In this document: in pieces, positions 338 through 55,360 of the stretch
Numbering within the stretch: the stretch's first letter is position 1
Layout of the letters: every line of letters begins with the position of its first letter
Source of the DNA: an uncultured Planctomycetia bacterium
GTDB lineage: Bacteria > Omnitrophota > Gorgyraeia > 2-02-FULL-51-18
Direction: 5' to 3'
Assembly: GCA_964606485.1 (NCBI GenBank)
Contig: CAZSGP010000001.1
Span: forward strand, 353,085-417,084
Length of the DNA stretch: 64,000 nucleotides
Translations under genes and position numbers: made by a program
The notes under the pieces: generated by a model
What the model was told of the DNA's origin: nothing
The model's database searches: none
Seen by the model: the letters and a program-made list of their open reading frames with translations, nothing else

Positions 338-355
338 ACTTTAGATGCTTGTTAT

Positions 356-384
356 TTGACAATCGATATAATATATGCTACTAT
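356..384 (+). promoter_or_regulatory. Candidate sigma70-type promoter (TTGACA-17nt-TACTAT) in AT-rich region upstream of pilin gene
   Basis: TTGACA at 356-361 and TACTAT at 379-384 with a 17 nt spacer, inside a 190 bp AT-rich intergenic region. A strong SD (AAAAGGAGAAAC) lies just before the ATG at 526. The implied 5'UTR would be ~135 nt. Confidence 0.3.
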
Positions 385-525
385 TTGAGTAATAGATGAT
401 AAACCTGTTAAGAACTATTGAAGAGAGAGAATGAACCGCCATCCTAATCATAGAAGGTCCTCTCTTAAACAGTTCCCGGCAGATTTTGGAATATAGGTTT
501 ATTTGTACAACAAAAGGAGAAACAC

Positions 526-897
526 ATGATTAAACGCAATAATAAGCTAGGTTTCACCCTAGTTGAAATTATGATCGTGGTTGCGATCATCGGTCTCTTG
601 GCAGCTATCGCGGTCCCGAACTTCGTTCAGGCTCGTAACAGCGCCCGTTCCAATAGCTGTATCAATAACCTCCGGTTAATTGACGCGGCCAAGGAACAGT
701 ACGCCATCGAAAACAATATCGCCAGCGGTGTGGCCACTAGCTCAACAAGCTGCACGGCTTATCTGAAGAACAACTCGTTCCCAGTTTGCCCGGGGACTAC
801 GACGGCTTATACGACAAACAACATCGGAACCTATCCTTCGTGCGCTATCTCGGGAACGGCTTCGGCCCAGACTCCCAAGAGCCATCGTCTGGATTAA
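526..897 (+). CDS. pilA: Type IV pilin / pseudopilin-like protein with prepilin-type N-terminal cleavage/methylation domain
   Basis: N-terminus MIKRNNKLGFTLVEIMIVVAIIGLLAAIAVP has a short basic leader, G|F cleavage site, Glu at +5 and a hydrophobic helix. The C-terminal half is Ser/Thr/Asn-rich with two Cys pairs (pilin D-region-like). Strong RBS. It lies upstream of pilMNOPQ. Confidence 0.85.
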   Translation: MIKRNNKLGFTLVEIMIVVAIIGLLAAIAVPNFVQARNSARSNSCINNLRLIDAAKEQYAIENNIASGVATSSTSCTAYLKNNSFPVCPGTTTAYTTNNIGTYPSCAISGTASAQTPKSHRLD

Positions 898-916
898 TTC
901 CGCTTTAGTTTAAAAC

Positions 917-2926: not shown

Positions 2927-4956
2927 AAAAACCCGCCTTCCATCTCCACTATCCGCGTGTCACCGCTATCTTTGTTTTAACAATTCTTATTTTTTGTCTG
3001 TACAGTGTTTCGCTAGGACATAATTTTTTATTCGATGAAGATAATATTATTCTTCTAAACCCCCTCTTAAGAGACCTTTCTAATTTTCCGAAGCTTTTTC
3101 AGGTAGGGTTTTTTCAGCGCTTCGCTCCAGGGTCGAGCGTGCTGTGGAATGACTATTACCGGCCGTTGACGCTGGTGAGTTTTGCGCTGGATTGGCAGAT
3201 TTGGGGGTCGAATCCGCTAGGCTACAATCTCGTGAACACCGCGCTTCATTTAACCGTTTGCGCACTTTTATTTTTACTGCTTCATCGGATCACCAAGCAT
3301 ATCGGCGCGGCATTTTTGGGCGCCCTGCTTTTTGGAGTTCACACGATTCACACCGAGGCAGTGACTTACATTGCTTCTCGAAGTGATTTGTTTGGCGGCC
3401 TCTTTGTGATGGCGGCACTCTTGCTGTACTGGAGAGGACGGATGGCGCCGGTTTATGCGCTGTATGCGCTTGCGCCGTTCGCTAAAGAAAGCGGGCTTCT
3501 ACTACCTGTGTACCTTTTTATTTTGGATTTTTGTTTTGTCCGGACAAAGCTTCGGGATTTGGTGCGGCGATTTGCTGGGTTTGCCGTGATCGGTTTGGCG
3601 TACATTGTTTTTCGAAAGTACGGCACGGAAATTCCATTGGGGCCGGGGAGTATTAGTTCTCATGGGGGCCTCTTGCGGTTTTTATCGATGGGGCCGCCGT
3701 TTATCAGTTATCTGCAGGTGCTTTTAGCGCCTGAGGCATTCCGTTATTGCGACGGGATCTCGTTCGCGAAATCCTTTACCGATCATCAAGTGCTGGTTAC
3801 GGCTCAGATCCTTGCGGTTTTGGGGGCGGCTTGGTTTGCGGCGCTCCGGTACCGCGGAAGCGTTTTGTTTGGCCTTTCGATTTTTCTGTTTGCATACTTT
3901 CCAAGTCTGCAGATTATTCATTATTACCCGGAATGGGCTGAGCATTACTTGTATATTCCGCTGATAGGACTCATTATCATGCTTAGCACATTGTTTAAAA
4001 ATATTCTTGAACAGAAAAAAGCGTTTTGGGTGGGACTGCTTTTTTTAATTTACGTGCCCTTTACGGCATTTGTGAGTTTCCGGACGGTTCAGCGCAATCT
4101 GCTTTATAACGATGCTGAAAAGTTTTGCACCGCGCTCTCCCGAAGTCCGTCACCCTATTCGTACTACGGCTATATTAATTTGGCGCGGTTTTTGTGCGAG
4201 AAAGGCAAATGGGAGGAAGCTTACGTCCCGCTTAAGACGGCACTTTTAATTGAGCCGGAGTCAGAAGCCAATCACTACAATATGGCGCTTTACCACACCT
4301 ATAAGAAAAATTACGCCAAGGCCCACGAGTTTTTTAGAAAGGCCTACGATATTGGAAGCCCACAACAGCCCATTTATCTGCTCAACTCCGTGATCGCGCT
4401 CAATCGCTTGGAAAAATATCAAGAGGCGATCGATGAGCTTGAAACCGTCTACCCAAAGGTCAAAAACGAATGGACGGTTTATAAAAACTTCATGCGCTCT
4501 TACGAATTTATGGGAAACCCCAAGAAGGCACTGGAGTGGGGAAATATAGGAATCCAAGAAACCTCGTCAGACGTGTCCAGGCAAGCGGCGGTAATGGTGG
4601 AGATTGTTTCATTGGCTTATCGCCAAGGATGGGATGATGTCCTGACGGAATACTTAGACCAAATGATTCAAAAATTCCCCGATATGCCTTGGTACGCAGA
4701 TTTGGCCTTTTTTCTAAAAGGAAAGGTTTCGGTTGAGGCGTACGAGAAATTAGTGGCCGAGAAGTATTGGCCGTCGATCAAGGAATCACGGCACTATGTG
4801 CTGATGGCCTACGTGCTTCGAAAAGATAGGGCGGGGGCCCAGTCGTACCTCGACCGGTACCGTTCCGAAATCGAAAAGAACTCTAATGATGAAGTTTTGG
4901 TGAATCGAATGTTCGCTCGAGCGGAAAGGTTTTTAGCATCACATCCCGCCAATTAA
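2923..4956 (+). CDS. Membrane GT-C glycosyltransferase homolog of the TMTC / PMT_2 (DUF1736) family with C-terminal TPR repeats (paralog 2)
   Basis: Shares the same conserved blocks and architecture as the upstream gene (GHNFLFDEDNIIL, YYRPLTLVSF, NPLGYNLVNTALH, IHTEAVTYIASRSDL, HYLYI). ATGA overlap with the preceding gene. C-terminal TPR repeats. Confidence 0.7.
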   Translation: MKKPAFHLHYPRVTAIFVLTILIFCLYSVSLGHNFLFDEDNIILLNPLLRDLSNFPKLFQVGFFQRFAPGSSVLWNDYYRPLTLVSFALDWQIWGSNPLGYNLVNTALHLTVCALLFLLLHRITKHIGAAFLGALLFGVHTIHTEAVTYIASRSDLFGGLFVMAALLLYWRGRMAPVYALYALAPFAKESGLLLPVYLFILDFCFVRTKLRDLVRRFAGFAVIGLAYIVFRKYGTEIPLGPGSISSHGGLLRFLSMGPPFISYLQVLLAPEAFRYCDGISFAKSFTDHQVLVTAQILAVLGAAWFAALRYRGSVLFGLSIFLFAYFPSLQIIHYYPEWAEHYLYIPLIGLIIMLSTLFKNILEQKKAFWVGLLFLIYVPFTAFVSFRTVQRNLLYNDAEKFCTALSRSPSPYSYYGYINLARFLCEKGKWEEAYVPLKTALLIEPESEANHYNMALYHTYKKNYAKAHEFFRKAYDIGSPQQPIYLLNSVIALNRLEKYQEAIDELETVYPKVKNEWTVYKNFMRSYEFMGNPKKALEWGNIGIQETSSDVSRQAAVMVEIVSLAYRQGWDDVLTEYLDQMIQKFPDMPWYADLAFFLKGKVSVEAYEKLVAEKYWPSIKESRHYVLMAYVLRKDRAGAQSYLDRYRSEIEKNSNDEVLVNRMFARAERFLASHPAN

Positions 4957-4973
4957 GCGCTGTACTCTTTTTA

Positions 4974-7079
4974 TTGATTGCGGCGCAGTTTATTTATTTC
5001 AGGCTCAGCTTCATTCCATTTTTTAACCGAGACACGGTGCTGATGGGGGACATCAACACCTTTCATTATCTGATCAGCCTTTTCAATGCAGACGCGTACC
5101 GTCATTTTGAGATTCCTTATTGGAACCCGTACATTTTTTCCGGCATGCCTTGGTCCTGCGGCTTGGAAAACAAAGTTTTTTTCCTGCCCGAAATCATCGC
5201 CTCATTTTTTCCAGGGTTTTCCTACGGATTTTTAAAGTTTGAGCTTTTTTTCTTTATCTTCTTGGCAGGTTTAGGTGTGTTCGTGTGGGCTAAAAGCCTG
5301 AACACCTCGAATACCGCCGCTTTTTTTTCGGGAATCAGTTTTATGTCGTCGGGTATTTTTGTGGCCAACGCCGGACATTTTGGGCAGATCGTGGTTTATG
5401 CGCTCTCACCGTGGATTTTTTGGCTTCTTCAAAAGATGGTTGCTGCCCCGGAGCCTCGCTTGGCCATTGGAGCCGCTTTTTGTCTCACACTCGCACTCAC
5501 CGGAGGATACCCGGGCACAGTCATCGTTCTTTTATATCTAATAGGGTTTGTGATGGGGCTCTCGTTTTTTATTTCCAAGCACCCCAAGAAACTTTTTAAA
5601 ATTTATCTACTGTGGGGTTTATTGACCGCAGGTCTTTCAGCGGCTTTTTTACTGCCGGCATTATTCTTTTTTAAAGAGACGGTTCGCCATAACCTGACCC
5701 TTAGTTTCAAAACGATTGTGACGGAGCATGCGCTCGCGCCCGCCAATCTCTTATCTTTGCTTGCCCCAAGCCTTGCCACAAACACCCATTTTTTAGACTC
5801 CATCCCAGACGCCAATATTCTAATGAGCAATGTCTATATGGGAGCACTGGCTCTGCCCTGTGCGGCGGCCGCTTTTTTTTGGGATAAAAAACGCAGGCGC
5901 TTGATCATGATTATAATTTTTATTTCTTTGTTTTGCCTTCTTGCGGCGATGGGCGCACACACCCCGGTGAGACCCTGGATGTTTCATGCGTGGCCGTTGA
6001 TGGACAAAATCCGTCTGAGCTCATCCATTTTCAGAGGATTTTTTCTTCTCGGTTTTTGTCTCTTGGCCGGTTTCGGAGTGGATGCATTGATGGAGCTCAA
6101 AAACAGCTTTAAAAAATTCGGAATGCCTCTTATTTATGCTGTCGCCGGATTTTTAATTTTGAAATGGACTGTGAGTGGATCGGCGGTGTGGCCGGAAGTT
6201 TTGGGAGAATGGCACCACAGTCTTTTGATACTTTGTTTTTTTTGGCTCATTTTATTGGCTCTCGAGAGAAAAATTGTCGGGAAAACTGTATTTTTTCTGC
6301 TTGTCAGCGTGCTTTTAGTGGCCGACTTTTCTTACGCAGTCTCCAAAAATGATGCGGTGCTTTGGCAAAAGAACCCCGCGGCACTGGAGTGGATTGAGAG
6401 CCTTCAAAGTCAGAGAGACCGTTCATTTTCGGGCCTTCAAAATTTTCACCGCGAAAAAAAATATCCGCTAGATGATAATCTCACCCCTTTATTTTTTAGA
6501 GTGCGCTCCGATGGGGGATTTTTGGGGGGAGACGGAGGGGCTCAGCTTTTTTCATACGCGCAATTTATGAAAACGAAGGCGCACCGCATTTTAACCGATG
6601 GGCCGCAGGCTTGGTTTCTTTCGAAATTATGCCACCGGCAAAACGGGGAAGAGGTTTTGCGGGAGTTGGACCGTGATGATTTGAATCCGGAGGAGACAGG
6701 TTTCATTGTATTCAACTCAGACAAAAAAACAGAATACTCTTACCAAAAATCGCCGGAGCAAAGTTTTCGTATTTTAAAATATGGACTAAATAAAATTGTA
6801 TTTCAATATTCTTCACCGAACGAATGCTATCTTGTGTTAAACGAAGTGTATGACGATTCCTGGCGCGCGCGCTTCAAATCTAGCGGCCAAAGAATTCCCG
6901 TCGAGCGGGTAGACGCCATTTTGCGCGGCATGACTTTGCCAAAAGGGGAGGCTGTGATTGAGATGAGTTACGATCCGCCGATTCAAAAGGTCGGGATTTG
7001 GATGTCTTTAGCCACGCTCGCGGGCTTACTTGCCTTCTTTTTGTCAAATTTCAAAGGGCTGAGGCTAAAAAATGTTTGA
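4974..7079 (+). CDS. YfhO-like polytopic membrane protein (GT-C-type glycosyltransferase family) with C-terminal extracytoplasmic domain
   Basis: More than 12 predicted TM helices in the N-terminal 450 aa. C-terminal soluble domain ends with the YfhO-type motif VLNEVYDDSWRARFKSSGQRIPVERVDAILRGMTLPKGEAVIEM and a terminal TM helix. TTG start. Confidence 0.5.
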   Translation: MIAAQFIYFRLSFIPFFNRDTVLMGDINTFHYLISLFNADAYRHFEIPYWNPYIFSGMPWSCGLENKVFFLPEIIASFFPGFSYGFLKFELFFFIFLAGLGVFVWAKSLNTSNTAAFFSGISFMSSGIFVANAGHFGQIVVYALSPWIFWLLQKMVAAPEPRLAIGAAFCLTLALTGGYPGTVIVLLYLIGFVMGLSFFISKHPKKLFKIYLLWGLLTAGLSAAFLLPALFFFKETVRHNLTLSFKTIVTEHALAPANLLSLLAPSLATNTHFLDSIPDANILMSNVYMGALALPCAAAAFFWDKKRRRLIMIIIFISLFCLLAAMGAHTPVRPWMFHAWPLMDKIRLSSSIFRGFFLLGFCLLAGFGVDALMELKNSFKKFGMPLIYAVAGFLILKWTVSGSAVWPEVLGEWHHSLLILCFFWLILLALERKIVGKTVFFLLVSVLLVADFSYAVSKNDAVLWQKNPAALEWIESLQSQRDRSFSGLQNFHREKKYPLDDNLTPLFFRVRSDGGFLGGDGGAQLFSYAQFMKTKAHRILTDGPQAWFLSKLCHRQNGEEVLRELDRDDLNPEETGFIVFNSDKKTEYSYQKSPEQSFRILKYGLNKIVFQYSSPNECYLVLNEVYDDSWRARFKSSGQRIPVERVDAILRGMTLPKGEAVIEMSYDPPIQKVGIWMSLATLAGLLAFFLSNFKGLRLKNV

Positions 7080-24903: not shown

Positions 24904-26073
24904 ATGGATGCTCTAATACACTCAGGCGCCGCGATTCATGCGCTGTGGACTTTTCCGGCGATTATTCTGGCGGCCCTTCTAATTGCCTGGGCGGCGGAAT
25001 GCGGCCAATTTTATATTTCCCAAGGTTTGGCCCTAGCGGTTTTGGCGTGGGTGCAGACGCTTCCGGAATTTGCTGTGGAAGCGGTGATCGCTCTCGGCGC
25101 CGCTAAAGACCCTTCTCAAATGCACTTGGTCACCGCGAATTTTACGGGGTCACTCCGGCTTTTTGTGGGATTTGGCTGGCCCATGGTTTACTTTGTAGCC
25201 GTGTTATGGGGCAAAAGGCCTAAAGGCGCTCAGAAGCGCTGGTGGACCATTGAAATGGAAGACGAGCACTCGATTGCCGTACTCTCGCTCTTACCCGCGC
25301 TGATTTATTTCCTATTTATTTATTTAAAGGGGACGCTGACGGTTTGGGACAGCGTGGCGCTCGGCTTTATTTATTTTATTTATTTGTTCCTGCTTTCAAG
25401 AATGCCCGCTCAAGAACAAGAGGGGGTAGAGGATCTGTCGCGTATTCCTAAGGCCATTATGAAGGCCAAGCCCCCGGCGAATTATTTTTGGATACTCGGT
25501 TTTTTTGTGGCAGGCGCCTTAATACTTTGGTTTTGTGCACACCCCTTCTTAGAGTCGATGTTGGGGCTTGCGGTGTCAATGGGGGTGTCTCAGTTTGTAT
25601 TTGTGCAGTGGATGGCGCCGTTCTTAAGTGAATTTCCTGAAAAACTGTCGGCGTTTCACTGGGCGAAATCCGGAAAGGCGCCGATGGCGCTTGTGAATTT
25701 TGTGTCGTCATCAATCAATCAATGGACGATTCTGGTGGCGACGGTACCGGTGATTTATTCATTCGGAGTGGGGCACGTGGCGCCCATCCAGTTTGACAGC
25801 CATCAAAGACTTGAGATTTTACTCACGATCACGCAATCGTATCTTGGATTTTTATTTTTACTCGGCATGGATTTTGCGGCGGTGGAGGCTATTGGTCTTT
25901 TTGTGTTGTGGCTCATTCAATTTTTAGTCCCGGGTGTGCGTGAGGAAATTGTTTATTTCTATGCGCTTTGGATTGTGGTGGAAACGACGCGCTTTGCTTG
26001 GAACTATAAAAAACGCAACGCGTTCAATGTTTTTGGGGGTCTCGTCCGGGAAAAGCTGTTTAAGAAACGCTGA
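24904..26073 (+). CDS. Polytopic membrane protein, possible divergent cation/Ca2+ exchanger (CaCA)-like with two internal repeats
   Basis: About 10 TM helices. Two halves each carry a G-x-x-x-x-x-x-x-(L/F)PE(F/K) block (QTLPEFAVEA; LSEFPEKLSA) reminiscent of CaCA alpha-repeats. Weak assignment. Confidence 0.3.
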   Translation: MDALIHSGAAIHALWTFPAIILAALLIAWAAECGQFYISQGLALAVLAWVQTLPEFAVEAVIALGAAKDPSQMHLVTANFTGSLRLFVGFGWPMVYFVAVLWGKRPKGAQKRWWTIEMEDEHSIAVLSLLPALIYFLFIYLKGTLTVWDSVALGFIYFIYLFLLSRMPAQEQEGVEDLSRIPKAIMKAKPPANYFWILGFFVAGALILWFCAHPFLESMLGLAVSMGVSQFVFVQWMAPFLSEFPEKLSAFHWAKSGKAPMALVNFVSSSINQWTILVATVPVIYSFGVGHVAPIQFDSHQRLEILLTITQSYLGFLFLLGMDFAAVEAIGLFVLWLIQFLVPGVREEIVYFYALWIVVETTRFAWNYKKRNAFNVFGGLVREKLFKKR

Positions 26074-26735
26074 TGTTTAAGAGCGTTCAAAAAACTCTCA
26101 CCAACGCTGGAATTGTTTTTGTTCTGGTTCTCATTTTCGCTTTTGGCGTCAAATTTTTTCAAGAATTTCTCACCTTTCGTAAAATTATCCATAATTTAAA
26201 GGCCGAATCCCGCATTGCCGAAGTGCTGGTCACCGAATCCAGCATCGACGAGTACACGCGCAAGTACACGACGACGATTAAATTTTTGGAATACGACGTG
26301 AAGGGCAAGCCGATGAAGGCGAAATACTTTACCTTTAAAGGCAATTTGATTCAGTTTCAGACGCTGGTGGTGCGATTTGATGACAAATACATCGAGCAAG
26401 GCAATCGCATGAAAGGAAAGAGCATCTACCTCTTTTTGAAGGCATTCGTGCTGGACGGCAAGGACACGCAGGAATTCGAAATTACGCCGACGGCGGAAGT
26501 CCCGGGTGGGTACAAAACTTCAGAGACACCGTCGCGCTTCGAAAAAGAAATTTGGCAAAAATTCTGGAAGGTGGCGCTGGATCCTGACCAGCGCAAGCAA
26601 GTGGGCATTAAAAACGCGCAGATTGAAGCGCCGGGCTCTGTGTTTGTGCCGGGCACGATTTACACGCTGATCATCGAGCATGATGGGGGAATTCGGATTG
26701 ATACGAGGCCGATTCCGGAGATATTGAAGAACTAA
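26073..26735 (+). CDS. Hypothetical protein with N-terminal TM anchor
   Basis: ATGA overlap with the upstream gene. One N-terminal TM helix, then a ~190 aa soluble domain with no recognised motif. Confidence 0.4.
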
Positions 26736-26740
26736 AATCA

Positions 26741-26830
26741 CCCCTCCGTCCGCTGAGGCGGACACCTCCCCTTAGTAAGGGGAGGAAATTTCCCCTCCTT
26801 ACCAAGGAGGGGTGGGCACGAAGTGCCGGG
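26741..26830 (+). repeat. Array of four consecutive GC-rich hairpins (GTCCGC-TGAG-GCGGAC; CTCCCCTT-AGT-AAGGGGAG; CCCCTCC-TTACCAA-GGAGGGG; GGCAC-GAA-GTGCC) between hypothetical gene and uvrA
   Basis: Four perfect short palindromes within 90 nt. The CCCCTCC / GGAGGGG tracts also occur in other terminator hairpins in this window. Confidence 0.5.
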
Positions 26831-38887: not shown

Positions 38888-40201
38888 ATGAGTCAAGCGC
38901 ACCCCAAAAGTTTTAATGGTTTAGGCATTAGCCCCGAAATCCTAACCGTGCTGGAAAGTCTCAAATTTGAAGTTCCGACACCCGTGCAGGTGAAGGCGAT
39001 TCCTGTAGCAAATGAAGGAAAAGACGTGCTGGGCATTGCGCAAACCGGCACGGGGAAGACGCTGGCGTTTGGCGTTCCCATGATTCAACGCCTTCGCACC
39101 GAATCTGGCCGCGCGCTGATCTTAGTCCCCACCCGCGAATTGGCCCTTCAAGTGGATGCGACCATTCGGAAATTAGGCAACCCCTTCGACATCCGTTCCG
39201 TGATTGTGATCGGCGGCATGGACATGGCCACACAGGTGAAGCTTCTTAAAAAAGAAACGATCCGTGTGATTATTGCGACGCCTGGCCGGCTTCTGGATCA
39301 TTTCGAACAAAAAACGTTGAACGCAGAAGATCTTAAAATGGTGGTTCTCGACGAAGCAGACCGCATGCTCGACATGGGTTTTGCGCCGCAAGTTGAGCGC
39401 TTGGCCAAATTTTTACCCAAAAATCGTCAGACTTTATTTTTTTCCGCGACCATGCCTGAGGCCGTGGTAACGCTCGCAGCTTTGTATATGACAGCACCCG
39501 TGACAGTGGAAGTGGCCCCCTCGGGCGCGGCCCCTGAAAAAATTGTGCAGGAGCTTTATATTATTCCAATGGAGTCAAAGCTCGAGCTATTGTCTAAAAT
39601 TTTATCTAAAACCCGCGGAAGCGTGCTTATTTTTACGCGCACCAAGGCCAATGCGTGGAAGCTTGCTGAAGCGCTGAGACAAATGAAGTTTACCGCCAAT
39701 GAGCTTCACTCGGACCGCACCCAAGGCCAAAGGCGTCATGCGCTGAACGGTTTTAAAACGGGCGTTTACAAGGTGCTCGTTGCCACCGACATAGCCGCGC
39801 GCGGCATCGACGTGAAGGGGATAGAGCTCGTGGTGAATTTTGATTTGCCGGATGAGACCGAAAACTATGTGCATCGCATTGGTCGCACCGGCCGCGCGGG
39901 ACTTGCGGGTCACGCCATCACGTTTGCCATGCCCAACGAAAGCGGAGACATTCGCGCGATTGAAAAATTAATGAAGACCGCTTTGAAAGTGGTCCATCAC
40001 CCGGCCGTTCCATCCGCAGAATTCGACGAAACCCTGCGGCGCTCCAAGCGCAAACACGTTTACGAAGACGAAGAGCGCCACAAAGACGGTCGACCCCAGT
40101 TTAGAGGCTCGACTCAACTCAAACAGTTTATTGAACGCAAAGCGCAAAGAGAGAAACATGCCGAAGGCGATATTCATCCGCCACGCGGAAAGCGTCGCTA
40201 A
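38888..40201 (+). CDS. DEAD-box ATP-dependent RNA helicase
   Basis: Q-motif, AQTGTGKT, PTRELA, DEAD, SAT, ARGID and HRIGRTGR motifs. Confidence 0.9.
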   Translation: MSQAHPKSFNGLGISPEILTVLESLKFEVPTPVQVKAIPVANEGKDVLGIAQTGTGKTLAFGVPMIQRLRTESGRALILVPTRELALQVDATIRKLGNPFDIRSVIVIGGMDMATQVKLLKKETIRVIIATPGRLLDHFEQKTLNAEDLKMVVLDEADRMLDMGFAPQVERLAKFLPKNRQTLFFSATMPEAVVTLAALYMTAPVTVEVAPSGAAPEKIVQELYIIPMESKLELLSKILSKTRGSVLIFTRTKANAWKLAEALRQMKFTANELHSDRTQGQRRHALNGFKTGVYKVLVATDIAARGIDVKGIELVVNFDLPDETENYVHRIGRTGRAGLAGHAITFAMPNESGDIRAIEKLMKTALKVVHHPAVPSAEFDETLRRSKRKHVYEDEERHKDGRPQFRGSTQLKQFIERKAQREKHAEGDIHPPRGKRR

Positions 40202-42655: not shown

Positions 42656-43666
42656 GTGATTTCCGCCGCCCAAAAAAATATAAAAGATATTCTTTCGTTA
42701 TCTGTAAAACATTCCGATTTTCAATCGGCGGTTATCGTGTCCGATGCGCAGTGTGAGCTCTCAAAAATTCTAAGCCGCGCCTACCGGGACTGCTTGCCCT
42801 CAGCGCAATTTGTGGATTTTGATTCCACGTCGCCCAGCGAGGTGCTCGCCACGTTTAAACGCTTAAAGCCGTCCGATCTTGTGGTGCTCATTCAGTCGTC
42901 TAATTTTCGCTTAGAGGCTTTTCGTTTGCGCGTGGAGCTCTTTAACCAGTCGCTCAAAGTCATTGAGCACGTGCATTTAGCCAAAATGAAAGACACGGAG
43001 CTCGAAATTTACATCGATTCGCTGGCGTATGACCCGGATTATTTTTGCGGAGTAGGGGAAGCGCTTAAAAAGCGGATGGACCGCGCCACGCGGACCGAAA
43101 TTAAAAGTGGTGATGAGTGTTTGGTGGTTGAAGGGATGCTCGAATCCGCAAAACTCAACACCGGCAACTACTCTCAGATGAAAAATGTGGGCGGGCAGTT
43201 TCCGATCGGCGAAGTTTTTTCGGAAGCGCAGGATTTAACCCGAGTGAATGGTTGCGCGCAAATTTTTGCATTTGGGGATGCGGAATTTAAAGTCAACAAA
43301 CCCAAAACACCCATCACGCTTGTGATTGAAAGTGGGAAAGTGGTAGATGTTCGAAATTCGACTCCGGAATTTGACCGCGTGCTTGCCACGATTCGCGCTG
43401 ACGAGGGGGATGTCTGGGTGAGAGAGCTTGGATTTGGATTAAATCGCGCGTTTACGAAAGAGCGTACGGTGATCGACATCGGAGCGTACGAGCGCATGTG
43501 CGGCGTGCATTTGTCGCTCGGCGTCAAACACACCGTTTACAAAAAGCCTGCATTCACCCGAAGCATGGCCAAGCATCATGTTGATGTGTTTATAGACACT
43601 ACGCAAGTTTTGCTGGGTGGTGAGAGCGTCTACCACGGTGGAAAGTGGATGATTGGTCGGAGCTGA
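42656..43666 (+). CDS. Hypothetical protein, possible M29 (aminopeptidase T/PepS)-like fold
   Basis: Weak resemblance to the M29 N-terminal region. C-terminal HLSLG resembles the M29 HIALG block. 336 aa is shorter than typical M29 proteins. GTG start. Confidence 0.3.
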   Translation: MISAAQKNIKDILSLSVKHSDFQSAVIVSDAQCELSKILSRAYRDCLPSAQFVDFDSTSPSEVLATFKRLKPSDLVVLIQSSNFRLEAFRLRVELFNQSLKVIEHVHLAKMKDTELEIYIDSLAYDPDYFCGVGEALKKRMDRATRTEIKSGDECLVVEGMLESAKLNTGNYSQMKNVGGQFPIGEVFSEAQDLTRVNGCAQIFAFGDAEFKVNKPKTPITLVIESGKVVDVRNSTPEFDRVLATIRADEGDVWVRELGFGLNRAFTKERTVIDIGAYERMCGVHLSLGVKHTVYKKPAFTRSMAKHHVDVFIDTTQVLLGGESVYHGGKWMIGRS

Positions 43667-43706
43667 GGGGTGTAGTGAACCGAATACCCCTCAGCGCCGA
43701 TTGAAT
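43656..43706 (+). repeat. Hairpin repeat element, copy A (GTCGGAGCTGAGGGGTG-TAGTGAACCGAATACCCCTCAGCGCCGATTGAAT)
   Basis: Near-identical to the sequence at 46783-46843 apart from a 10 nt insertion in copy B. Forms a GAGGGG/CCCCTC hairpin. Overlaps the last codons of the upstream gene. Confidence 0.55.
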
Positions 43707-43719
43707 TAAATCTAAGGAG

Positions 43720-43749
43720 TTGACAAACTAAACGATCGTTCAGTATAGT
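43720..43749 (+). promoter_or_regulatory. Sigma70-type promoter (TTGACA-18-TATAGT) of lexA with embedded palindromic LexA-box candidate AACGATCGTTC (GAAC-N4-GTTC class) at 43731-43741
   Basis: A perfect 10 bp palindrome AACGATCGTT lies between the -35 and -10 hexamers. This matches the Cheo-box type consensus CGAAC-N4-GTTCG with one flank mismatch. Confidence 0.5.
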
Positions 43750-43770
43750 ATGTCCAGAGGGAGAGTCCCA

Positions 43771-44352
43771 ATGGCAAAAACGATTGAGTGGTCGAAGGCC
43801 GTCGCAAAGTTAAGAGAGTTTTACCGCGCGCAGAAGCGCCCGCCGAGTTTCCAGGAAATAGCCGAACTTTTTTCTTACAAATCCAAAAACGCCGCGTTTG
43901 AACTGGTCGAAAAATTAATCGAAAAAGGATTTCTAAAAAAGGATTCCAAGGGAAAAATTCTTTTTGATTCGCTTCTGGGTGTGAAGCTCTTGGGAAGCGT
44001 GCAGGCGGGGTGGCCCAGTCCCGCCGAAGAAGAGCTTGTCGACACGATGAGTTTGGATGAATACCTCATCAAGCACCCCGAGCAAACTTTTCTCGTGAAA
44101 GTGTCGGGCGACTCAATGATTGACGCGGGCATTCACGAAGGGGACTTGGTGCTGGTTGAGCGCGGCCGCCAAGCCAAGCACCGGGACATCGTGATCGCTC
44201 AGGTCGACAACGAGTGGACGATGAAATATTACGAAAGAGTCGGCTCGGCTGTTCGGCTTGTAGCTGCCAATAAAAAATATCCGCCCATTGCTCCCAAACA
44301 AGAACTGAATATCGGCGGCGTTGTCGTCGCTGTGATCCGGAGGTACAAATAA
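43771..44352 (+). CDS. lexA: LexA repressor (S24 peptidase)
   Basis: N-terminal wHTH, cleavage-site region VQAG, and catalytic Ser/Lys contexts GDSMIDAGI and ...KYYER. RBS GAGGGAGAG before the ATG at 43771. Confidence 0.9.
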   Translation: MAKTIEWSKAVAKLREFYRAQKRPPSFQEIAELFSYKSKNAAFELVEKLIEKGFLKKDSKGKILFDSLLGVKLLGSVQAGWPSPAEEELVDTMSLDEYLIKHPEQTFLVKVSGDSMIDAGIHEGDLVLVERGRQAKHRDIVIAQVDNEWTMKYYERVGSAVRLVAANKKYPPIAPKQELNIGGVVVAVIRRYK

Positions 44353-45656
44353 TGACGCTCAACTTGCATTCGCTTCCAAAGGCCATTGTTCACATCGACT
44401 GCGATTCTTTTTTTGCGAGTGTCGAGCAGTCGCTTGACCCCAAGTTAAAAGGAAAGCCCGTGATTGTCGGAAAAGACCGCGGGATTGCGGCCGCATTTAG
44501 CATTGAGGCTAAGCGCTGTGGGGTGACGCGCGCCATGCCGCTTTATGAAATTAAAAAATTGTGTCCGGACGCGGTATTTTTGCCGTGCGATTACGAAACG
44601 TACAGTTTGGTGTCCAAACGTTTTTACGGAATTCTGCGGCGCTTTACGCCGGATGTGGAGGAGTACTCCATCGACGAAGCATTTGCCGATCTCACGGGTT
44701 TGCGGCGCGTGTATCACGGTTCGTACGAGTCGATTGCACTAGAAATGAAAAAGACGGTCGAAAAGGAACTTGGGATCACCGTCTCGGCAGGTTTAAGTCT
44801 CACCAAATCGATTGCAAAAATCTGCTCCAAAGACAACAAGCCCTCCGGCTTTACCTGTGTAAAAGGGTATGAGCTTCACGAGTATTTGAAAAGCGTTGCG
44901 GTCGAGCGCGTCTGCGGATTTGGACCAGCGAGCACCGCACTTCTGAATAAGCATGGTGTCGCGACGGTGTGGGACTACATTCAAAAGCCTGAACTGTTTG
45001 CGCAAAGCTTGCTTGGAAAAATTGGCGTCGAGCTCTGGCATGAATTAAAAGGTGATTCGGTTTACCCGGTGTCGATTGAGAAAAAAGAAGCGCAAGCGAC
45101 GCTTAGCAAAACTAAAACCTTTACACCGGCGTCGAGCGACCGTGAGGTGGTGCGTGCTCAGCTTATTCGCAACATGGAGTCGGCGTTTATCAAGTTGCGC
45201 CGCCACGGACTGCGCACCAAAGCGATCGGGGCGTATTTAAAAAATAATGATCACCGCGGCAAAGGGCTTTTTGCAGAGCTTGAGCGCCACACCGATTCAC
45301 CGCTTGAGGGGATTAAAATTGTATCGGGACTTTTCGACCGCTTGTTTGAACCGAATGTGCGCTACCGCGCAACCGGCGTGTGGTTTGAAGATTTGGAAGG
45401 CGGCATCGAAATGCAGAGAGATTTATTTGAAGACCCGGTGCGCGTGAAAGGCATGAAGGAAATTTCCAAAACGATTGATGAAGCCGGTGAGATGTACGGC
45501 AAGCACGCGCTTCATTTAGGGGCGAGTGATCTTTTGCGCGAGCATCGCCAGCACTTGGGCGAGCGGGGAGATTTTTCTACGCGCAAGCTCAATCCCCTAA
45601 AAGGCGAAAATTTTCGCCAGCATCTGGGCATTCCGTTGTGGGATGTTAAAGTGTAA
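44352..45656 (+). CDS. Y-family translesion DNA polymerase (DinB/UmuC-like)
   Basis: IVHIDCDSFFASVE at the N-terminus and SIDEAFADLTG. Length 434 aa. Start overlaps the lexA stop (ATAATGA). Confidence 0.85.
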   Translation: MTLNLHSLPKAIVHIDCDSFFASVEQSLDPKLKGKPVIVGKDRGIAAAFSIEAKRCGVTRAMPLYEIKKLCPDAVFLPCDYETYSLVSKRFYGILRRFTPDVEEYSIDEAFADLTGLRRVYHGSYESIALEMKKTVEKELGITVSAGLSLTKSIAKICSKDNKPSGFTCVKGYELHEYLKSVAVERVCGFGPASTALLNKHGVATVWDYIQKPELFAQSLLGKIGVELWHELKGDSVYPVSIEKKEAQATLSKTKTFTPASSDREVVRAQLIRNMESAFIKLRRHGLRTKAIGAYLKNNDHRGKGLFAELERHTDSPLEGIKIVSGLFDRLFEPNVRYRATGVWFEDLEGGIEMQRDLFEDPVRVKGMKEISKTIDEAGEMYGKHALHLGASDLLREHRQHLGERGDFSTRKLNPLKGENFRQHLGIPLWDVKV

Positions 45657-45667
45657 GATACTGCCTC

Positions 45668-46585
45668 ATGAGACATTTTAATCCAAGACACGACCGGCAT
45701 GAGCGTCCGCGTCAGCGCGACGAGGCGGAGAGTCGGTTTCTAGCCGGTATCGCCGTCGACCCATCTCCGAGAATTCGCCTAGAAGACGGCTCTAAAGAAT
45801 TCACCACGCGCGCCATAGATCTCATTTGTCCCATCGGAATGGGGCAGAGGGGTTTGATTGTGGCACCTCCCGGTTCCGGTAAAACGACTTTCTTGAAACA
45901 CATTTGTCAGGCCGTATCGAAATCTCAGCCTGCGATAAAACTTTACTGCCTGCTCGTTGACGAGCGCCCCGAAGAGGTGACTGATTTTAAACGAAGTGTT
46001 CCCGCAACGCTTTATTGGTCCTCCTCCGATGAAAGTTATGAAAATCATATCCGCGTGGCAGACGAATTGATGCGCCAAGCGATTCGCGAGGCGGGCAATG
46101 GTGAAAACGTGATGGTGGTGATTGATTCGCTCACACGTCTCTCGCGCGTGCACAATGCCGAACGTGGCTCGAGTGGACGGACCCTTTCAGGCGGAGTAGA
46201 TGCGCGAGCGCTCGAAGTACCGCGACGAATTTTTGGCATGGCGCGCAAAATTGAAAATGCCGGCTCACTCACGATTCTTGCCACAATCTTAGTCGACACC
46301 GGAAGCCGCATGGACCAAGTCATCTTTGAAGAGTTTAAAGGCACCGGCAATATGGAAATTGTTCTAAGCCGCGAAATCTCCGGGCACCGCATTTACCCGG
46401 CAATTGATATTTCTAAAAGCATGACGCGACGTGAGGAATTATTGGCCACCGGTCCCGAACTCGGCAACATGCGCAAACTCCGCCGCGAACTGGTGAAGCT
46501 CGGCAGTGTCGAAGCCGCCAAAACGCTCGTGTCTCTCCTCGAAAAATTTCCCACAAACACCGAACTTCTCGCGGCTCAGCGTTAA
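45668..46585 (+). CDS. rho: Rho termination factor homolog consisting only of the C-terminal RecA-type ATPase domain (no N-terminal RNA-binding/OB domain)
   Basis: Walker A LIVAPPGSGKTT, LLVDERPEEVTD, Q-loop-like LVDTGSRMDQVIFEEFKGTGNMEIVL, and PAIDISKSMTRREELL. The ORF is closed 18 nt upstream of the ATG by an in-frame TAA, so no NTD can be encoded here. Confidence 0.8.
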   Translation: MRHFNPRHDRHERPRQRDEAESRFLAGIAVDPSPRIRLEDGSKEFTTRAIDLICPIGMGQRGLIVAPPGSGKTTFLKHICQAVSKSQPAIKLYCLLVDERPEEVTDFKRSVPATLYWSSSDESYENHIRVADELMRQAIREAGNGENVMVVIDSLTRLSRVHNAERGSSGRTLSGGVDARALEVPRRIFGMARKIENAGSLTILATILVDTGSRMDQVIFEEFKGTGNMEIVLSREISGHRIYPAIDISKSMTRREELLATGPELGNMRKLRRELVKLGSVEAAKTLVSLLEKFPTNTELLAAQR

Positions 46586-46762
46586 GCGGAAGCCAGTCAA
46601 AAAAGCTTCCTCGCTCCAGGTCCCCCGCCTTCGGCGGGCCACGCCTATTCCGATGTTAGATGAGTTTTTTGGTGAATTATCATGCGAATAAAATCCAAAA
46701 CGTTTGGGTTCTGTGGTCGGCGCATGCCTTTCGCTCCGGAAACTTTTTTGACTGGCTTCCGC
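46586..46762. mobile_element. MITE-like 177 bp element with perfect 20 bp terminal inverted repeats (GCGGAAGCCAGTCAAAAAAG / CTTTTTTGACTGGCTTCCGC)
   Basis: TIRs at 46586-46605 and 46743-46762. The interior is non-coding. It carries a CCCGCC-TTCG-GCGGG tetraloop hairpin right after the rho-like stop, and the TCGCTCC motif repeats directly inside both ends. Confidence 0.45.
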
Positions 46763-46782
46763 TTCTTTGTGTTTGCCGGGCT

Positions 46783-46843
46783 AGTCGGAGTTGAGGGGTG
46801 TTCGCAGGCGTAGTGAACCGAATACCCCTCAACGCCGACTGGA
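46783..46843 (+). repeat. Hairpin repeat element, copy B (same family as 43656-43706, with 10 nt loop insertion)
   Basis: GTCGGAGTTGAGGGGTG-TTCGCAGGCG-TAGTGAACCGAATACCCCTCAACGCCGACTGGAT. Same orientation as copy A. Confidence 0.55.
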
Positions 46844-46853
46844 TGACGCGTTA

Positions 46854-49079
46854 CTAGTGCCGTGTTTCTTTAATTCGAAGCGTGAGGCCGATGCGCTTGC
46901 GGGGGAGATCAATCGTTAAAACTTTAACGGTGACAATTTGCCCAGTCTTAACAACGGCATGCGGATCTCGCACGTAGTCGTTCGCGAGTTCTGAAATGTG
47001 AACGAGTCCATCCTGGTGAACGCCAATGTCCACAAACGCACCGAAGTTAGCGACGTTGGTGATCGTGCCTTCCAGAATCATGCCGGGTTTTAAGTGTTCC
47101 ATTTCAGTGATTTTAGAATTCAGCACCGCCGCTTTAAACTCAGGGCGCGGGTCGCGTCCTGGTTTTTCGAGTTCTTCTAAAATGTCGGAAACCGTAGGCA
47201 CGCCAAATTTTTCGTCGGCGTATTCCTCGGGTTTTAAATTTTGCAAGATTTCTGATTTGCCTAGAAGCGTTTTAAGGTCGAGCGACTGACGCTCCAAAAT
47301 TTTATGCACGACTGGGTACGACTCGGGGTGAACGGCGGACGCATCCAGCGGATTGTCACCGTTTGGAATTCTTAAAAAACCCGCCGCTTGCTCAAATGTG
47401 CGCGGACCAAATTCGAATATTTTCTTAAAATCTTCACGCGATCTAAACGCACCGTTTTCGTTGCGGTACAAAACCATTTTATCGGCCACGCGGCGCGTGA
47501 GGCCGGCGACGTAAGACAAAAGAGAAGGGGACGCGGTGTTCACATCGACGCCGACGGCATTTACGCAGTCTTCGACCACGTTGTGAAGCATTTTACCGAG
47601 ACGAATTTGATTCACGTCGTGTTGATATTGACCCACACCAATGGACTTGGGATCGATTTTCACGAGTTCCGCGAGCGGGTCTTGCAGGCGCCGCGCAATA
47701 GAAACCGCGCCACGCAAAGTAACATCGAGCGTTGGCAGTTCACTCGAGGCCAGTTCCGACGCCGAATACACCGACGCCCCCGCCTCAGACACCACAATTT
47801 TTTGAATCTTAGAATCCGGCAATAATTTTATAAGATCGACGGCCAGTTTGTCGGTTTCGCGTGACGCGGTGCCGTTTCCGATGGCGACAAGTTCGATGGA
47901 GTGTTTTTGAGCGAGCTCTTTTAATTTTCGAAGCGCGCCATTCCAGTCGTCGCCCGGTGGGTGAGGGTAAATCGTGGCGCACTCGAGCACTTTTCCGGTT
48001 TTGTCGACACAAGCGACTTTGACGCCGGTGCGAAAGCCAGGGTCAAGACCCATCGTGGCGCGGCTACCGCCGGGTGCTGCCAAGAGAAGGCTTTTTAAGT
48101 TTTGAGCGAACACGCGAATCGCTTCCTCTTCCGCGTTCTTTTTGAGCCGCAAGATCAAATCAATTTCAAGGCCGGCGCGAATTTTGTATTTCCAGGCAAA
48201 CTTCACTGCTTCCAAGAGCCACGGGTCTCGCAGTGACCGAGCCAAGCGCACGTTAAATTTTTTAAGAATTTCAAAAATGTATTCTTCGTCTTCGGTTTTT
48301 TTATCGGTGTAGCCCACAAGGCCGGTTGTCTCCATTCGAACCGATAAAACACCTTCCGCGCGCCCGCGCAAGATCGCGAGAATCCGGTGAGAGGGGAGTT
48401 TCGCAAGCGCTTCACGGAAATCAAAATAATCTAAAAATTTCTGAGCGTCAGCGACCTGCATTTTATCTTTTGCGGAAACCTTGGAGTAAAGATAACCTTC
48501 GCGCCAGAATTTTTCACGCAAGAAACTCACGAGCTCCGGATTTTCAGAAAAAGTTTCCGCCAAAATGTCCCGCGCGCCGTTTAGTGCTTGCTCAAGCGAG
48601 GCAATGCCTTTAATTTCGGAAACGTATTTCAAGCCTTCTGCTGAGGGGTCCGTAGCGGAGTCGTTTAAAATTTTGAGAGCAAGGGGTTCGAGTCCAGCGG
48701 CGCGAGCGGCTTCGGCCCGGGAATTTTTTTTAGGTTTAAATGGTAAGTAGAGATCTTCGAGTTCGGCTTTGGTTTGTGCTTTTTCAATCGCATCTTTCAC
48801 GGCGGGGGTTAATTTTCCCTGCTCTTGAATCGAGTCTAAAATAGATTTACGTCTCGATTCCAGTTCTCGCAAATACTCCAACCGATCGGCCAGTGCGCGC
48901 AAATGAGTGTCCGTTAGCCCGCCTGTAACCTCTTTGCGGTAGCGCGCAATGAAAGGAACGGTGGCGCCGCCATCCAAAAGACGGATCGCCGCCCAGATTT
49001 GATGAGGTTTCACCGCCAGTTCTTTGGCGATGGTTTGTTCTATGGGCAAAGAGCCCGCTTCGACGACGGTGGAATTCAT
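46854..49079 (-). CDS. tex: Transcription accessory protein Tex (YqgF/RNase H-like, HhH, S1 domains)
   Basis: N-terminal ...VPFIARYRKEVTGGL, YqgF domain, HhH motifs and a C-terminal S1 domain. 741 aa. Confidence 0.9.
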   Translation of the reverse strand: MNSTVVEAGSLPIEQTIAKELAVKPHQIWAAIRLLDGGATVPFIARYRKEVTGGLTDTHLRALADRLEYLRELESRRKSILDSIQEQGKLTPAVKDAIEKAQTKAELEDLYLPFKPKKNSRAEAARAAGLEPLALKILNDSATDPSAEGLKYVSEIKGIASLEQALNGARDILAETFSENPELVSFLREKFWREGYLYSKVSAKDKMQVADAQKFLDYFDFREALAKLPSHRILAILRGRAEGVLSVRMETTGLVGYTDKKTEDEEYIFEILKKFNVRLARSLRDPWLLEAVKFAWKYKIRAGLEIDLILRLKKNAEEEAIRVFAQNLKSLLLAAPGGSRATMGLDPGFRTGVKVACVDKTGKVLECATIYPHPPGDDWNGALRKLKELAQKHSIELVAIGNGTASRETDKLAVDLIKLLPDSKIQKIVVSEAGASVYSASELASSELPTLDVTLRGAVSIARRLQDPLAELVKIDPKSIGVGQYQHDVNQIRLGKMLHNVVEDCVNAVGVDVNTASPSLLSYVAGLTRRVADKMVLYRNENGAFRSREDFKKIFEFGPRTFEQAAGFLRIPNGDNPLDASAVHPESYPVVHKILERQSLDLKTLLGKSEILQNLKPEEYADEKFGVPTVSDILEELEKPGRDPRPEFKAAVLNSKITEMEHLKPGMILEGTITNVANFGAFVDIGVHQDGLVHISELANDYVRDPHAVVKTGQIVTVKVLTIDLPRKRIGLTLRIKETRH

Positions 49080-49131: not shown

Positions 49132-50490
49132 ATGACAAATGAAAATCAAACCGCGACGTTTTACGGCTTGGGAATCGCGCCAAGCATTTTAGAATTGTTA
49201 GACAAAATGAAGTACAGTGTTCCAACACCGATCCAGCAAAAAGCCATTCCGATTGGCCTGGAAGGAAAAGACGTGCTCGGAATCGCCCAAACGGGAACCG
49301 GGAAAACACTCGCCTTCGGAATTCCCATTATTCAACGCCTTCTGCAGAACCCGGGCCGCGCACTGATTTTGGTGCCCACTCGTGAACTCGCCGTGCAAGT
49401 TGATGAAACTTTGAGAAAATTAGGACAGCCTTACAACATCCGCACCGTGATTTTGATCGGCGGCATGAATATGTCCATGCAGGTTCAGCAATTGAAGAAA
49501 TCTTTCACGCGCGTGCTTATTGCAACGCCTGGACGTTTTTTAGATCATCTTCAGCAGCGCACGGTGAATCCGGCGGATCTGAAGACCGTGGTGCTCGACG
49601 AAGCGGATCGCATGCTCGACATGGGTTTTGCGCCGCAGATCTCAAAGATTGCCAAGTTTCTGCCCAAGGATCGTCAGACTTTATTCTTCTCGGCGACGAT
49701 GCCGGAATCCATTTTAAAAATTGCGTCCGAATACATGAAACTTCCGATCCGCATTGAAATCGCGCGACCGGGAACCACAGCGGACAAAATTACGCAGGAG
49801 CTTTTCATTGTCCGTCAGGGCATGAAGCAAATGCTGCTTGGAAAATTACTGGAGCAGTACCGCGGCAGCGTGCTCGTATTTGCACGCACGAAAATTAATG
49901 CCCGTAAAATTACTCAACATTTGCGTCAGACGGGGCATACGGCGAATGAAATTCACGCCAACCGTTCGCTCGGTCAGCGCCGTGAAGCGCTCGAAGGTTT
50001 TAAAACCGGGCGCTACCGCGTACTGGTCGCCACCGACATTGCCGCACGCGGCATTGACGTGAAGGGGATCGAGCTTGTCATTAATTACGATTTGCCGGAC
50101 GACATTGAAAATTATGTTCACCGTATCGGCCGCACCGGCCGCGCGGGACACTCCGGTCACGCGATTGCTTTGGCAACGCCGGATCAGGGGGCCAATGTTC
50201 GCGATATCGAAAAAATGATTCGCGGATCGCTTAAAGTTTCTATTCACCCGGCCGTTCCTCCGGAGAAATTTTCAGGAGCTTCGACGCCGTTTCGTCCTCA
50301 GCAGCAGCGGCATTCGAGCCAACATCGCCGGCCGCATGGCGGCGGACAGCACTCCCGTCCTTACGGGGGTGGTGGGAATTCGAGACCCTACGGCGGCGGC
50401 AATTCGCGCGGTGGAAATTCTCAAGGCGGCCAGTCACAAGGCGGTCATTCCAGTGGCGGACAAAGACCAAGAAATAGTTTCTACGACTAA
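49132..50490 (+). CDS. DEAD-box ATP-dependent RNA helicase (paralog of 38888-40201) with Gly/Arg/Ser-rich C-terminal tail
   Basis: All DEAD-box motifs are present and collinear with the first helicase. The tail reads GGGNSRPYGGGNSRGGNSQGGQSQGG. Confidence 0.9.
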   Translation: MTNENQTATFYGLGIAPSILELLDKMKYSVPTPIQQKAIPIGLEGKDVLGIAQTGTGKTLAFGIPIIQRLLQNPGRALILVPTRELAVQVDETLRKLGQPYNIRTVILIGGMNMSMQVQQLKKSFTRVLIATPGRFLDHLQQRTVNPADLKTVVLDEADRMLDMGFAPQISKIAKFLPKDRQTLFFSATMPESILKIASEYMKLPIRIEIARPGTTADKITQELFIVRQGMKQMLLGKLLEQYRGSVLVFARTKINARKITQHLRQTGHTANEIHANRSLGQRREALEGFKTGRYRVLVATDIAARGIDVKGIELVINYDLPDDIENYVHRIGRTGRAGHSGHAIALATPDQGANVRDIEKMIRGSLKVSIHPAVPPEKFSGASTPFRPQQQRHSSQHRRPHGGGQHSRPYGGGGNSRPYGGGNSRGGNSQGGQSQGGHSSGGQRPRNSFYD

Positions 50491-51469: not shown

Positions 51470-51490
51470 AGCGCGGTAGCGTAAAAAAAT

Positions 51491-51524
51491 AAAGCCCGAG
51501 CCGGAATCCGGTTCGGGCTTTATA
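51491..51524 (+). terminator. Terminator-like hairpin (AAAGCCCGAGCCGGA / TCCGGTTCGGGCTTT)
   Basis: 14-15 bp stem with a U-tail interrupted by TATAAT. Confidence 0.4.
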
Positions 51525-53135: not shown

Positions 53136-53173
53136 GCAGGACGGCATTCTTCTCAAGAGAATGCCGTCCTTTT
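53136..53173 (+). terminator. Rho-independent terminator
   Basis: GGACGGCATTC ... GAATGCCGTCC stem followed by TTTTT. Confidence 0.65.
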
Positions 53174-54939: not shown

Positions 54940-55290
54940 GGCTTATTCCTCCTACTACACTAGACGTCAGACCCCCTCAAATTTTCCAAATATATTTCAA
55001 TATTTTTGAAGCTCTTAACATTTTCACTCTAGAAATTGAACGGGCTGGCTTTTTAGTGAGTCAGGATTTAAACTGGCGCAAGTATGCTTCCGGGATGCAT
55101 ACTGGGTTTACACCATCCCTTTGCATTTCACTTTCCCGCCTGCTAAACTTTTCCAATGCCCATCAAGAAAGGCCTCTTAACTTTTTTCCTCGTCTCTAGT
55201 TTATTAATTTCCAATCTCTGGTCATCGCAAGCCGACACCGTCTACATCCCCGCTGATCAATATTTCGAAGTCACACTCAAAGTACCAGGG

Positions 55291-55352
55291 GTCAGTTCTT
55301 GAATCTTGAACGGCAACTTGGGGCAACCGTTTTTCAAGTTTCAAGAACTGAC
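55291..55352. repeat. Large perfect inverted repeat (GTCAGTTCTTGAA ... TTCAAGAACTGAC, 13 bp arms plus inner TCTTGAA/TTCAAGA) forming ~60 nt hairpin
   Basis: Lies in an intergenic region between the ORF6N gene and a hypothetical gene. No T-tract follows. Confidence 0.4.
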
Positions 55353-55360
55353 ACCTTAAT

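Follow-up and report, generated by a model that had tools for sequence, protein, structure and literature searches.

A long and nearly perfect inverted repeat that begins inside the stop codon of a rho gene raises the question of what, if anything, has moved there. The two arms could be the ends of a small mobile element, or they could be the two halves of a hairpin that was already in place when some other DNA arrived. The locus was analysed within a 64,000-nt stretch of DNA from an uncultured member of the Omnitrophota, and this whole stretch is called the window here. A sequence-only reading of the window had described a 177-bp non-coding element with perfect 20-bp terminal inverted repeats (TIRs), located immediately after the stop codon of a rho-like gene. 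It proposed that the element is a MITE (miniature inverted-repeat transposable element) or, as an alternative, a long-stemmed sRNA.

The inverted repeat at 46584-46764 is real, is larger than first described, and lies far beyond what chance would produce. The 20-mer GCGGAAGCCAGTCAAAAAAG occupies positions 46586-46605 and its exact reverse complement occupies positions 46743-46762, just as the sequence-only reading had reported. When up to three mismatches are allowed, these two arm sites are the only matches to the 20-mer in 64 kb (shuffle mean of 0.02). The perfect repeat is in fact 22 nt long (46584-46605 and 46743-46764), and the arms can be followed to 27 nt (46584-46610 and 46738-46764) with a single mismatch between C46606 and A46742. 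The original description located the repeat correctly and underestimated its extent: 26 of the 27 arm positions are complementary, the arms enclose 127 nt, and the whole unit measures 181 bp. At its outer edge, the left arm shares two bases with rho, namely the last two of the stop codon TAA (46583-46585). No other inverted repeat in the 64-kb window has at least 16 perfect base pairs within 500 nt, and the longest arm in 30 Markov-1 simulations used as a chance control was no longer than 16. The 127-nt interior segment is not palindromic. In the remaining features, the anatomy is as it was first described (perfect arms, small size, non-coding, intergenic), including a direct repeat of TCGCTCC beside both arms with zero spacer and a small internal hairpin, CCCGCC-TTC-GGCGGG. 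The parts of the element are as follows.

46584-46610, no strand assigned: left arm, AAGCGGAAGCCAGTCAAAAAAGCTTCC, itself a small palindrome of the form GGAAGC-N11-GCTTCC.
46611-46617, no strand assigned: first copy of TCGCTCC, abutting the left arm; it would be one of the two copies of a target-site duplication of 7 bp and, formerly, the loop of the hairpin.
46618-46730, no strand assigned: insert of 113 nt, non-coding and not unusually structured.
46731-46737, no strand assigned: second copy of TCGCTCC, abutting the first base of the right arm with no spacer.
46738-46764, no strand assigned: right arm, GGAAACTTTTTTGACTGGCTTCCGCTT, carrying the single mismatch at A46742.
46765-46774, plus strand: T-rich tail, CTTTGTGTTT, directly 3' of the stem and, as read from the sequence, terminator-like for the rho transcript.

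The one mismatch in the arms is itself informative. Because A46742 also disrupts the palindrome GGAAGC-N11-GCTTCC within the arm, the change probably arose at this base, from a stem that would at first have been a perfect 27 bp.

The genes and the second hairpin that surround the element are listed next.

45668-46585, plus strand: rho, a short form of 305 aa without the N-terminal RNA-binding domain, with its stop codon TAA at 46583-46585.
46783-46840, no strand assigned: second, REP-like hairpin with a 22-bp stem, 14 nt beyond the tex stop codon, with a sister at 43656-43700.
46854-49079, minus strand: tex, convergent with rho, 741 aa, with Pfam Tex_N, Tex_central, Tex_YqgF, HHH, and S1 domains.

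The 268-bp gap between rho and tex contains the element and the second hairpin. The upstream gene, called only rho-like at first, encodes a genuine short Rho, and the element does follow its stop codon directly, with the left arm beginning in the stop codon itself. The product matches the NCBIfam Rho equivalog model NF006886 with 360 bits over model positions 132-411 of 413, and the best 120 Rho homologs are 283-357 aa in length, many of them named Rho and assigned to Candidatus Omnitrophota/Omnitrophica. The short form looks to be phylum-wide in the Omnitrophota and not a truncation. Nothing has been cut off this Rho, because its C terminus aligns normally with those of its homologs.

Relatives provide a second line of evidence regarding the history of the site. 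At five related Omnitrophota rho loci, the space after rho ranges from -4 to 112 bp, the neighboring genes are different, and no comparable element is present. An origin by insertion is plausible because these five loci lack any such element. Among the available genomes, the closest has a best Rho identity of 82%, and there is no conserved synteny at rho.

The detail that best distinguishes between an element that carries its own inverted ends and one that landed between two existing arms is the direct repeat. Both copies of TCGCTCC abut the arms exactly (P of about 1e-4 to 1e-3): the exact abutment of a 7-mer is expected by chance at a rate of about 4^-7, and the simulated value, with 16 combinations of offset permitted, was 1.2e-3. 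If one copy of TCGCTCC is deleted together with the 113 nt (46618-46737), what remains is arm(27)-TCGCTCC-arm(27), which folds at -52.6 kcal/mol. In this reconstructed hairpin the 27-bp stem is restored, TCGCTCC forms the entire loop and is centred on the axis, and CTTTGTGTTT follows the stem.

The best reading of these observations, in which our confidence falls slightly short of even, is that a pre-existing hairpin at the 3' end of rho was struck at its axis by a small insertion that created a 7-bp duplication. Equally tentative is the corollary that the apparent TIRs are the two halves of the target and not the ends of an element. The ancestral hairpin would have had a 27-bp stem and the 7-nt loop TCGCTCC, followed by CTTTGTGTTT, and it could have served as a rho 3' terminator or as a stem that stabilizes the mRNA where rho and tex converge. 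Foreign or mobile DNA, a short piece that today measures 113 nt, would then have entered exactly at the axis of the palindrome, adding about 120 bp to the loop. In the process the 7-nt loop would have been duplicated through a staggered cut to yield arm - TCGCTCC - 113 nt - TCGCTCC - arm. The hairpin would therefore be older than the insertion, and in the rho transcript the long stem could still form with the insert inside it, its function at the 3' end probably retained. Candidates for the inserting agent are a non-autonomous derivative, or a remnant left by deletion, of a palindrome-targeting element.

Insertion at the hairpin axis would account for the lack of an outer duplication, for a location at the stop codon with a T-rich tail, and for arms that are single-copy. 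It draws on an inverted repeat, an abutting direct repeat, and one copy in the available sequence, as well as on an element that is absent from relatives and an insert that has neither intrinsic structure nor coding capacity. Outside the arms no direct repeat reaches 3 bp, whereas a MITE with these arms as its TIRs would normally have left one. With its start in the rho stop codon and a T-rich run behind it, the structure occupies the place expected of a 3' hairpin. All of the excess folding energy resides in the arms and none in the interior, and the 73.7 kb available from the source genome contain just one copy of the element.

Other long hairpins in the window also lie at gene ends (46783-46840, 43656-43700, 55287-55356, and 51489-51523). 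The two that are sisters, 46783-46840 and 43656-43700, align in the same orientation (nhmmer E of 2.5e-6) and differ by one compensatory change from C:G to T:A and by a 10-nt insertion in the loop of 46783-46840. Loops in this window do take indels, because the hairpin at 46783 carries this insertion relative to its sister.

Precedents for such an event are known. Insertion sequence (IS) elements that target REP sequences or other palindromes, including ISRm22, ISPsy8, ISPpu9/10, and IS1397, split REP palindromes to give the order REP fragment - direct repeat - IS - direct repeat - REP fragment, and ISRm22 has 6-bp direct repeats “just at the palindromy axis” (Tobes and Pareja 2006; PMC1525189). 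The rho locus has the same order of palindrome half, direct repeat, insert, direct repeat, and palindrome half. However, its insert is only 113 nt, without a transposase or recognizable ends, its target hairpin is single-copy and not a member of a high-copy REP family, and its duplication is 7 bp. Also comparable is the MITEPpu9/ssr9 module of Pseudomonas putida, which is small, non-coding, and non-autonomous, lacks classical TIRs, and is mobilized in trans into REPs (PMC12288879). That module shares A'/B' end boxes with an IS110-family element, creates only an AG duplication, is multi-copy, and gives rise to a promoter-driven sRNA (PMC12288879). The insert after rho likewise presents a small non-coding module without classical TIRs inside a palindrome, whereas the A'/B' boxes, the AG duplication, the multi-copy state, and the promoter-driven sRNA were not found at this locus. 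In sum, two palindrome halves flank the insert and a short direct repeat occurs at both junctions, but the insert does not correspond to a recognizable IS or MITE found elsewhere in the collections searched.

Several observations weigh against insertion at the hairpin axis. One concerns the insert, which has no TIRs of its own (its end-to-end alignment is no better than that of shuffles) and no relative in the collections searched, such that neither an inserting element nor an enzyme can be named. Homologs of the 113 nt were not found among plasmids, phages, or viral contigs, nor, in translation, in a set of 5.8 billion proteins. For the element as a whole, six-frame translation yielded 0 matches at E <=10 against the same 5.8 billion proteins, blastn yielded no match in the plasmid and phage collections, and patterns made from the interior and from the second hairpin had no match in viral contigs. 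Furthermore, the empty arm-TCGCTCC-arm arrangement was not found in relatives. The closest of these reach just 82% Rho identity and have other neighbors, so that the ancestral state is a reconstruction. Finally, a family of independent hairpins built from these arms was not found.

The proposed role of the ancestral hairpin also meets some resistance. The stem is located right after a stop codon, is followed by a U-rich run, and lies between convergent genes, all of which resemble an intrinsic terminator or a 3' stabilizing hairpin. In canonical intrinsic terminators the stem measures 5-14 bp and the loop 3-8 nt. In contrast, the stem of the element is 27 bp, which is long for a terminator when perfect, and it now encloses 127 nt; its terminator function is putative. 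Terminator-like consensus sites are also not enriched in the window (35 vs 30.8 and 28 vs 28.6 in shuffles). A clear terminator-like example is present at 53138-53170.

One statement in the sequence-only reading, that the element contains no open reading frame (ORF) with a start and ribosome-binding site, is nearly correct. A 43-aa ORF with an ATG start (MRIKSKTFGFCGRRMPFAPETFLTGFRFFVFAGLVGVEGCSQA), preceded by GGTGA 6 nt upstream, is present at 46682-46813, although no homolog was found in any of the six frames. The ORF begins in the insert, crosses the right arm, and ends inside the next hairpin, and its product has a signal-peptide-like shape. It is probably fortuitous. A small protein or type I toxin was considered and rejected on the grounds that the ORF has no homolog and crosses the border of the element.

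The strongest competitor to insertion at the hairpin axis is the one first proposed, that of a genuine MITE whose 27-nt arms are TIRs for a transposase encoded elsewhere, and whose entire 181-bp unit transposed to its place after the rho stop codon. Bacterial MITEs such as the Correia elements of Neisseria, RUP, and Nezha are about 100-400 bp in length, carry long TIRs, are non-coding and intergenic, and are often co-transcribed with their neighbors. The element after rho is similar in size to these, with near-perfect 27-nt TIRs on a short (<~500 bp) non-coding, intergenic unit, and it is missing after rho in five relatives. On this anatomy, and given that an origin by insertion is plausible, the sequence-only interpretation is partly supported. 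We nevertheless judge a MITE unlikely, because the outer duplication was not found, because no extra copy or transposase was found in 73.7 kb, and because the exactly abutting internal 7-nt direct repeat is left unexplained.

The search for an outer target-site duplication covered three plausible boundaries and revealed no direct repeat of at least 3 bp. There is only an ambiguous, palindromic GC at both borders, which might pass for a 2-bp duplication given a TIR start at GGAAGCC. Searches of 73.7 kb of the source genome with blastn-short and nhmmer found no second copy of the element, not even a diverged one. The 73.7 kb, which comprise the window and 9.5 kb upstream, likewise contain no transposase or recombinase in gene tables or Pfam scans. 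Assembly data point in the same direction. In SRR12487046, a Logan contig (k=31) that matches the window at 100% identity along 17.2 kb passes unbroken through the element. A near-identical sister copy in the same sample is therefore unlikely, because such a copy should have broken the contig there. Logan contigs do break at other repeated or palindromic places, namely at 26.76 kb, at a tRNA at 34.38 kb, and at a DEAD-box paralog at 39.35 kb. A strain with 99.94% identity along a contig of 3.1 kb is present in ERZ4216102.

The arms were also sought more widely. An 18-mer from the arm core was scanned against 185,579 species genomes, JGI metagenomes, and IMG/VR, and the matches, among which the window's own element does not appear, amounted to 29, 30, and 2 loci, respectively, or about the number expected by chance. 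These matches are isolated, with no partner arm in TIR orientation within 400 nt or in the whole locus (up to 14.9 kb). Further TIR copies were not found in the 73.7 kb, and the public collections gave only isolated, chance-level arm matches. A cognate transposase with matching ends was not found in the 73.7 kb, just as no pair of arms flanking a transposase was found in the public collections. As far as it can be tested, the MITE reading is not supported, because no similar TIRs were found anywhere in the sequence searched, an outcome that the sequence-only reading had itself named as refuting. Membership in the REP or REPIN families fares no better: with up to three mismatches the arm 20-mer occurs only at the two arms in 64 kb, and no RAYT-type Y1 transposase appears in the gene tables.

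Other known types of ends and sites were compared with the arms and set aside. By eye, resemblances to IS66-like or Tc1-like TIRs, to a sigma-54 promoter, to an outward-facing -35 element, and to a tyrosine-recombinase att core all failed because a required second half-site or spacing is absent. An integron attC consists of RYYYAAC 5' and GTTRRRY 3' of an imperfect hairpin, and is found beside cassette arrays and an IntI gene. Here, a core-like heptamer occurs only once, as GTTAAGC and at the wrong end; GCTTCTT stands at the opposite end, and there is no integrase.

One lead from the arm searches, a 28-nt match of 93% in JAKAHD010000007.1, was followed and dropped. The match is to a hairpin within 356-nt inverted repeats beside a serine recombinase. 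It was ruled out on the grounds that the source belongs to the Patescibacteria and not the Omnitrophota, that the match is at chance level in a 596-Gb search, and that its copies are oriented opposite to TIRs. That locus has features of its own. At 200-6850 of this Patescibacteria metagenome-assembled genome contig, the 356-nt inverted repeats are 97% complementary, contain several hairpins, and flank an N6-adenine methyltransferase gene and an HsdS-like specificity gene. The adjoining gene for a large serine recombinase is itself within 95-nt inverted repeats. The region is a candidate invertible or mobile restriction-modification module.

A less probable explanation than the MITE, and one that we consider rather improbable, is that the element is a lineage-specific structured RNA, either a rho 3'UTR element or an sRNA with a long closing helix. 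Relative to shuffles, the folding of the 181-bp unit is strongly non-random, with z of -5.98 for RNA from the plus strand, -7.52 for RNA from the minus strand, and -5.54 for DNA. On the minus strand the mismatch becomes a G-U pair, which gives 27 uninterrupted pairs, and co-transcription with rho is probable, as there is no promoter or terminator between them. However, the 127-nt interior folds no better than shuffles (z of +0.18 and +0.09 for the two strands). The folding signal must therefore come from the terminal helix alone, because the interior z is near 0. Perfect, bulge-free helices of 22-27 bp are atypical of evolved RNAs and would be substrates for RNase III.

Additional results speak against a structured RNA. 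There is no promoter-like site inside the element, and the element is not present after rho in relatives. In Rfam 15, which includes the 6S, Y RNA, and omega RNA families, no match reached the gathering thresholds anywhere in the window. When positions 46400-46950 were searched in E-value mode, the best hit, Moco-II, scored 19.1 bits (E of 0.77), below its gathering score of 35. RNAs of the 6S, Y-RNA, or omega-RNA type were rejected for this lack of matches and for the unstructured interior. The long-stemmed sRNA that had been offered as an alternative to the MITE is left unsupported by the absence of an Rfam match, by the interior z of about 0, and by the five relatives that lack the element.

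Still further down the list is an inverton, in which the 127 bp between the 27-bp repeats would be flipped by a site-specific recombinase, with an effect on read-through or antisense transcription where rho and tex converge. Invertons comprise segments of 100-300 bp between inverted repeats of about 10-30 bp, which are kept perfect because the crossover falls within them. The element after rho fits this anatomy in both segment size and repeat length, and it shares with fimS, the C. difficile cwpV/flgB switches, and the Bacteroides capsule promoters a short segment between inverted repeats, which in those systems measure about 130-300 bp and about 20 bp, respectively. Unlike these, it has no sigma-70-like promoter inside, no recombinase within 73.7 kb, and a location 3' of both neighboring genes. 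The Logan contig, 100% identical over 17.2 kb, holds a single orientation with no break in the graph, and the internal direct repeat is not expected of an inverton. We regard an inverton as very improbable here, and give similarly little credence to a 127-bp phase-variable switch at the 3' end of rho that would tune termination, read-through, or antisense transcription between rho and tex, the genes for two RNA-handling factors.

Chance similarity or an assembly artefact is effectively refuted by a perfect repeat of 22 nt where simulations reach at most 16, by the non-palindromic interior, and by the identical sequence within a long contig of the Logan assembly of SRR12487046. Whatever probability is not taken up by insertion at the hairpin axis, a MITE, a structured RNA, or an inverton goes to something that was not considered.

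If a hairpin at the end of rho was indeed struck at its axis, the locus would show cleanly, in an uncultured phylum that has been little studied, a long gene-end palindrome that served as an insertion target. Such an event would pass for a MITE even though the “TIRs” belong to the target, and this would counsel caution in the use of automated MITE and inverton callers. The biology is incremental, in that this is one orphan locus whose kind is broadly known, without an identifiable enzyme, and any effect on rho expression is putative. Its surroundings arguably hold more interest than the element itself, as the gene for the short Rho is apparently co-transcribed with two upstream genes.

43750-44352, upstream of rho: lexA, with a score above the TIGR00498 cutoff.
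44352-45656, upstream of rho: Y-family DNA polymerase, with a start that overlaps the lexA stop codon and an 11-nt gap to rho.

By their arrangement, lexA, the Y-family polymerase gene, and rho look like one operon, and rho may be co-transcribed under SOS control. The sister hairpins at 43656-43700 and 46783-46840 bracket lexA, the polymerase gene, rho, and the element, and each is at the 3' end of a gene (a 336-aa ORF and tex, respectively). Within 43720-46585 there is also a near-consensus promoter, TTGACA-18-TATAGT, with a Cheo-box-like palindrome, AAACGATCGTTC, ahead of lexA.

Two other places in the window deserve mention. At 26763-26814, in the gap after the ORF at 26073-26735, there are overlapping palindromes of the CCCCTCC/GGAGGGG type. 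Two Logan contigs of the same sample end or begin there, which suggests a repeated or self-complementary sequence. The window also encodes two DEAD-box helicase paralogs, at 38888-40201 and 49132-50490, that share 75% nucleotide identity over about 450 nt, and a Logan contig boundary at 39352 falls in the first of these genes.
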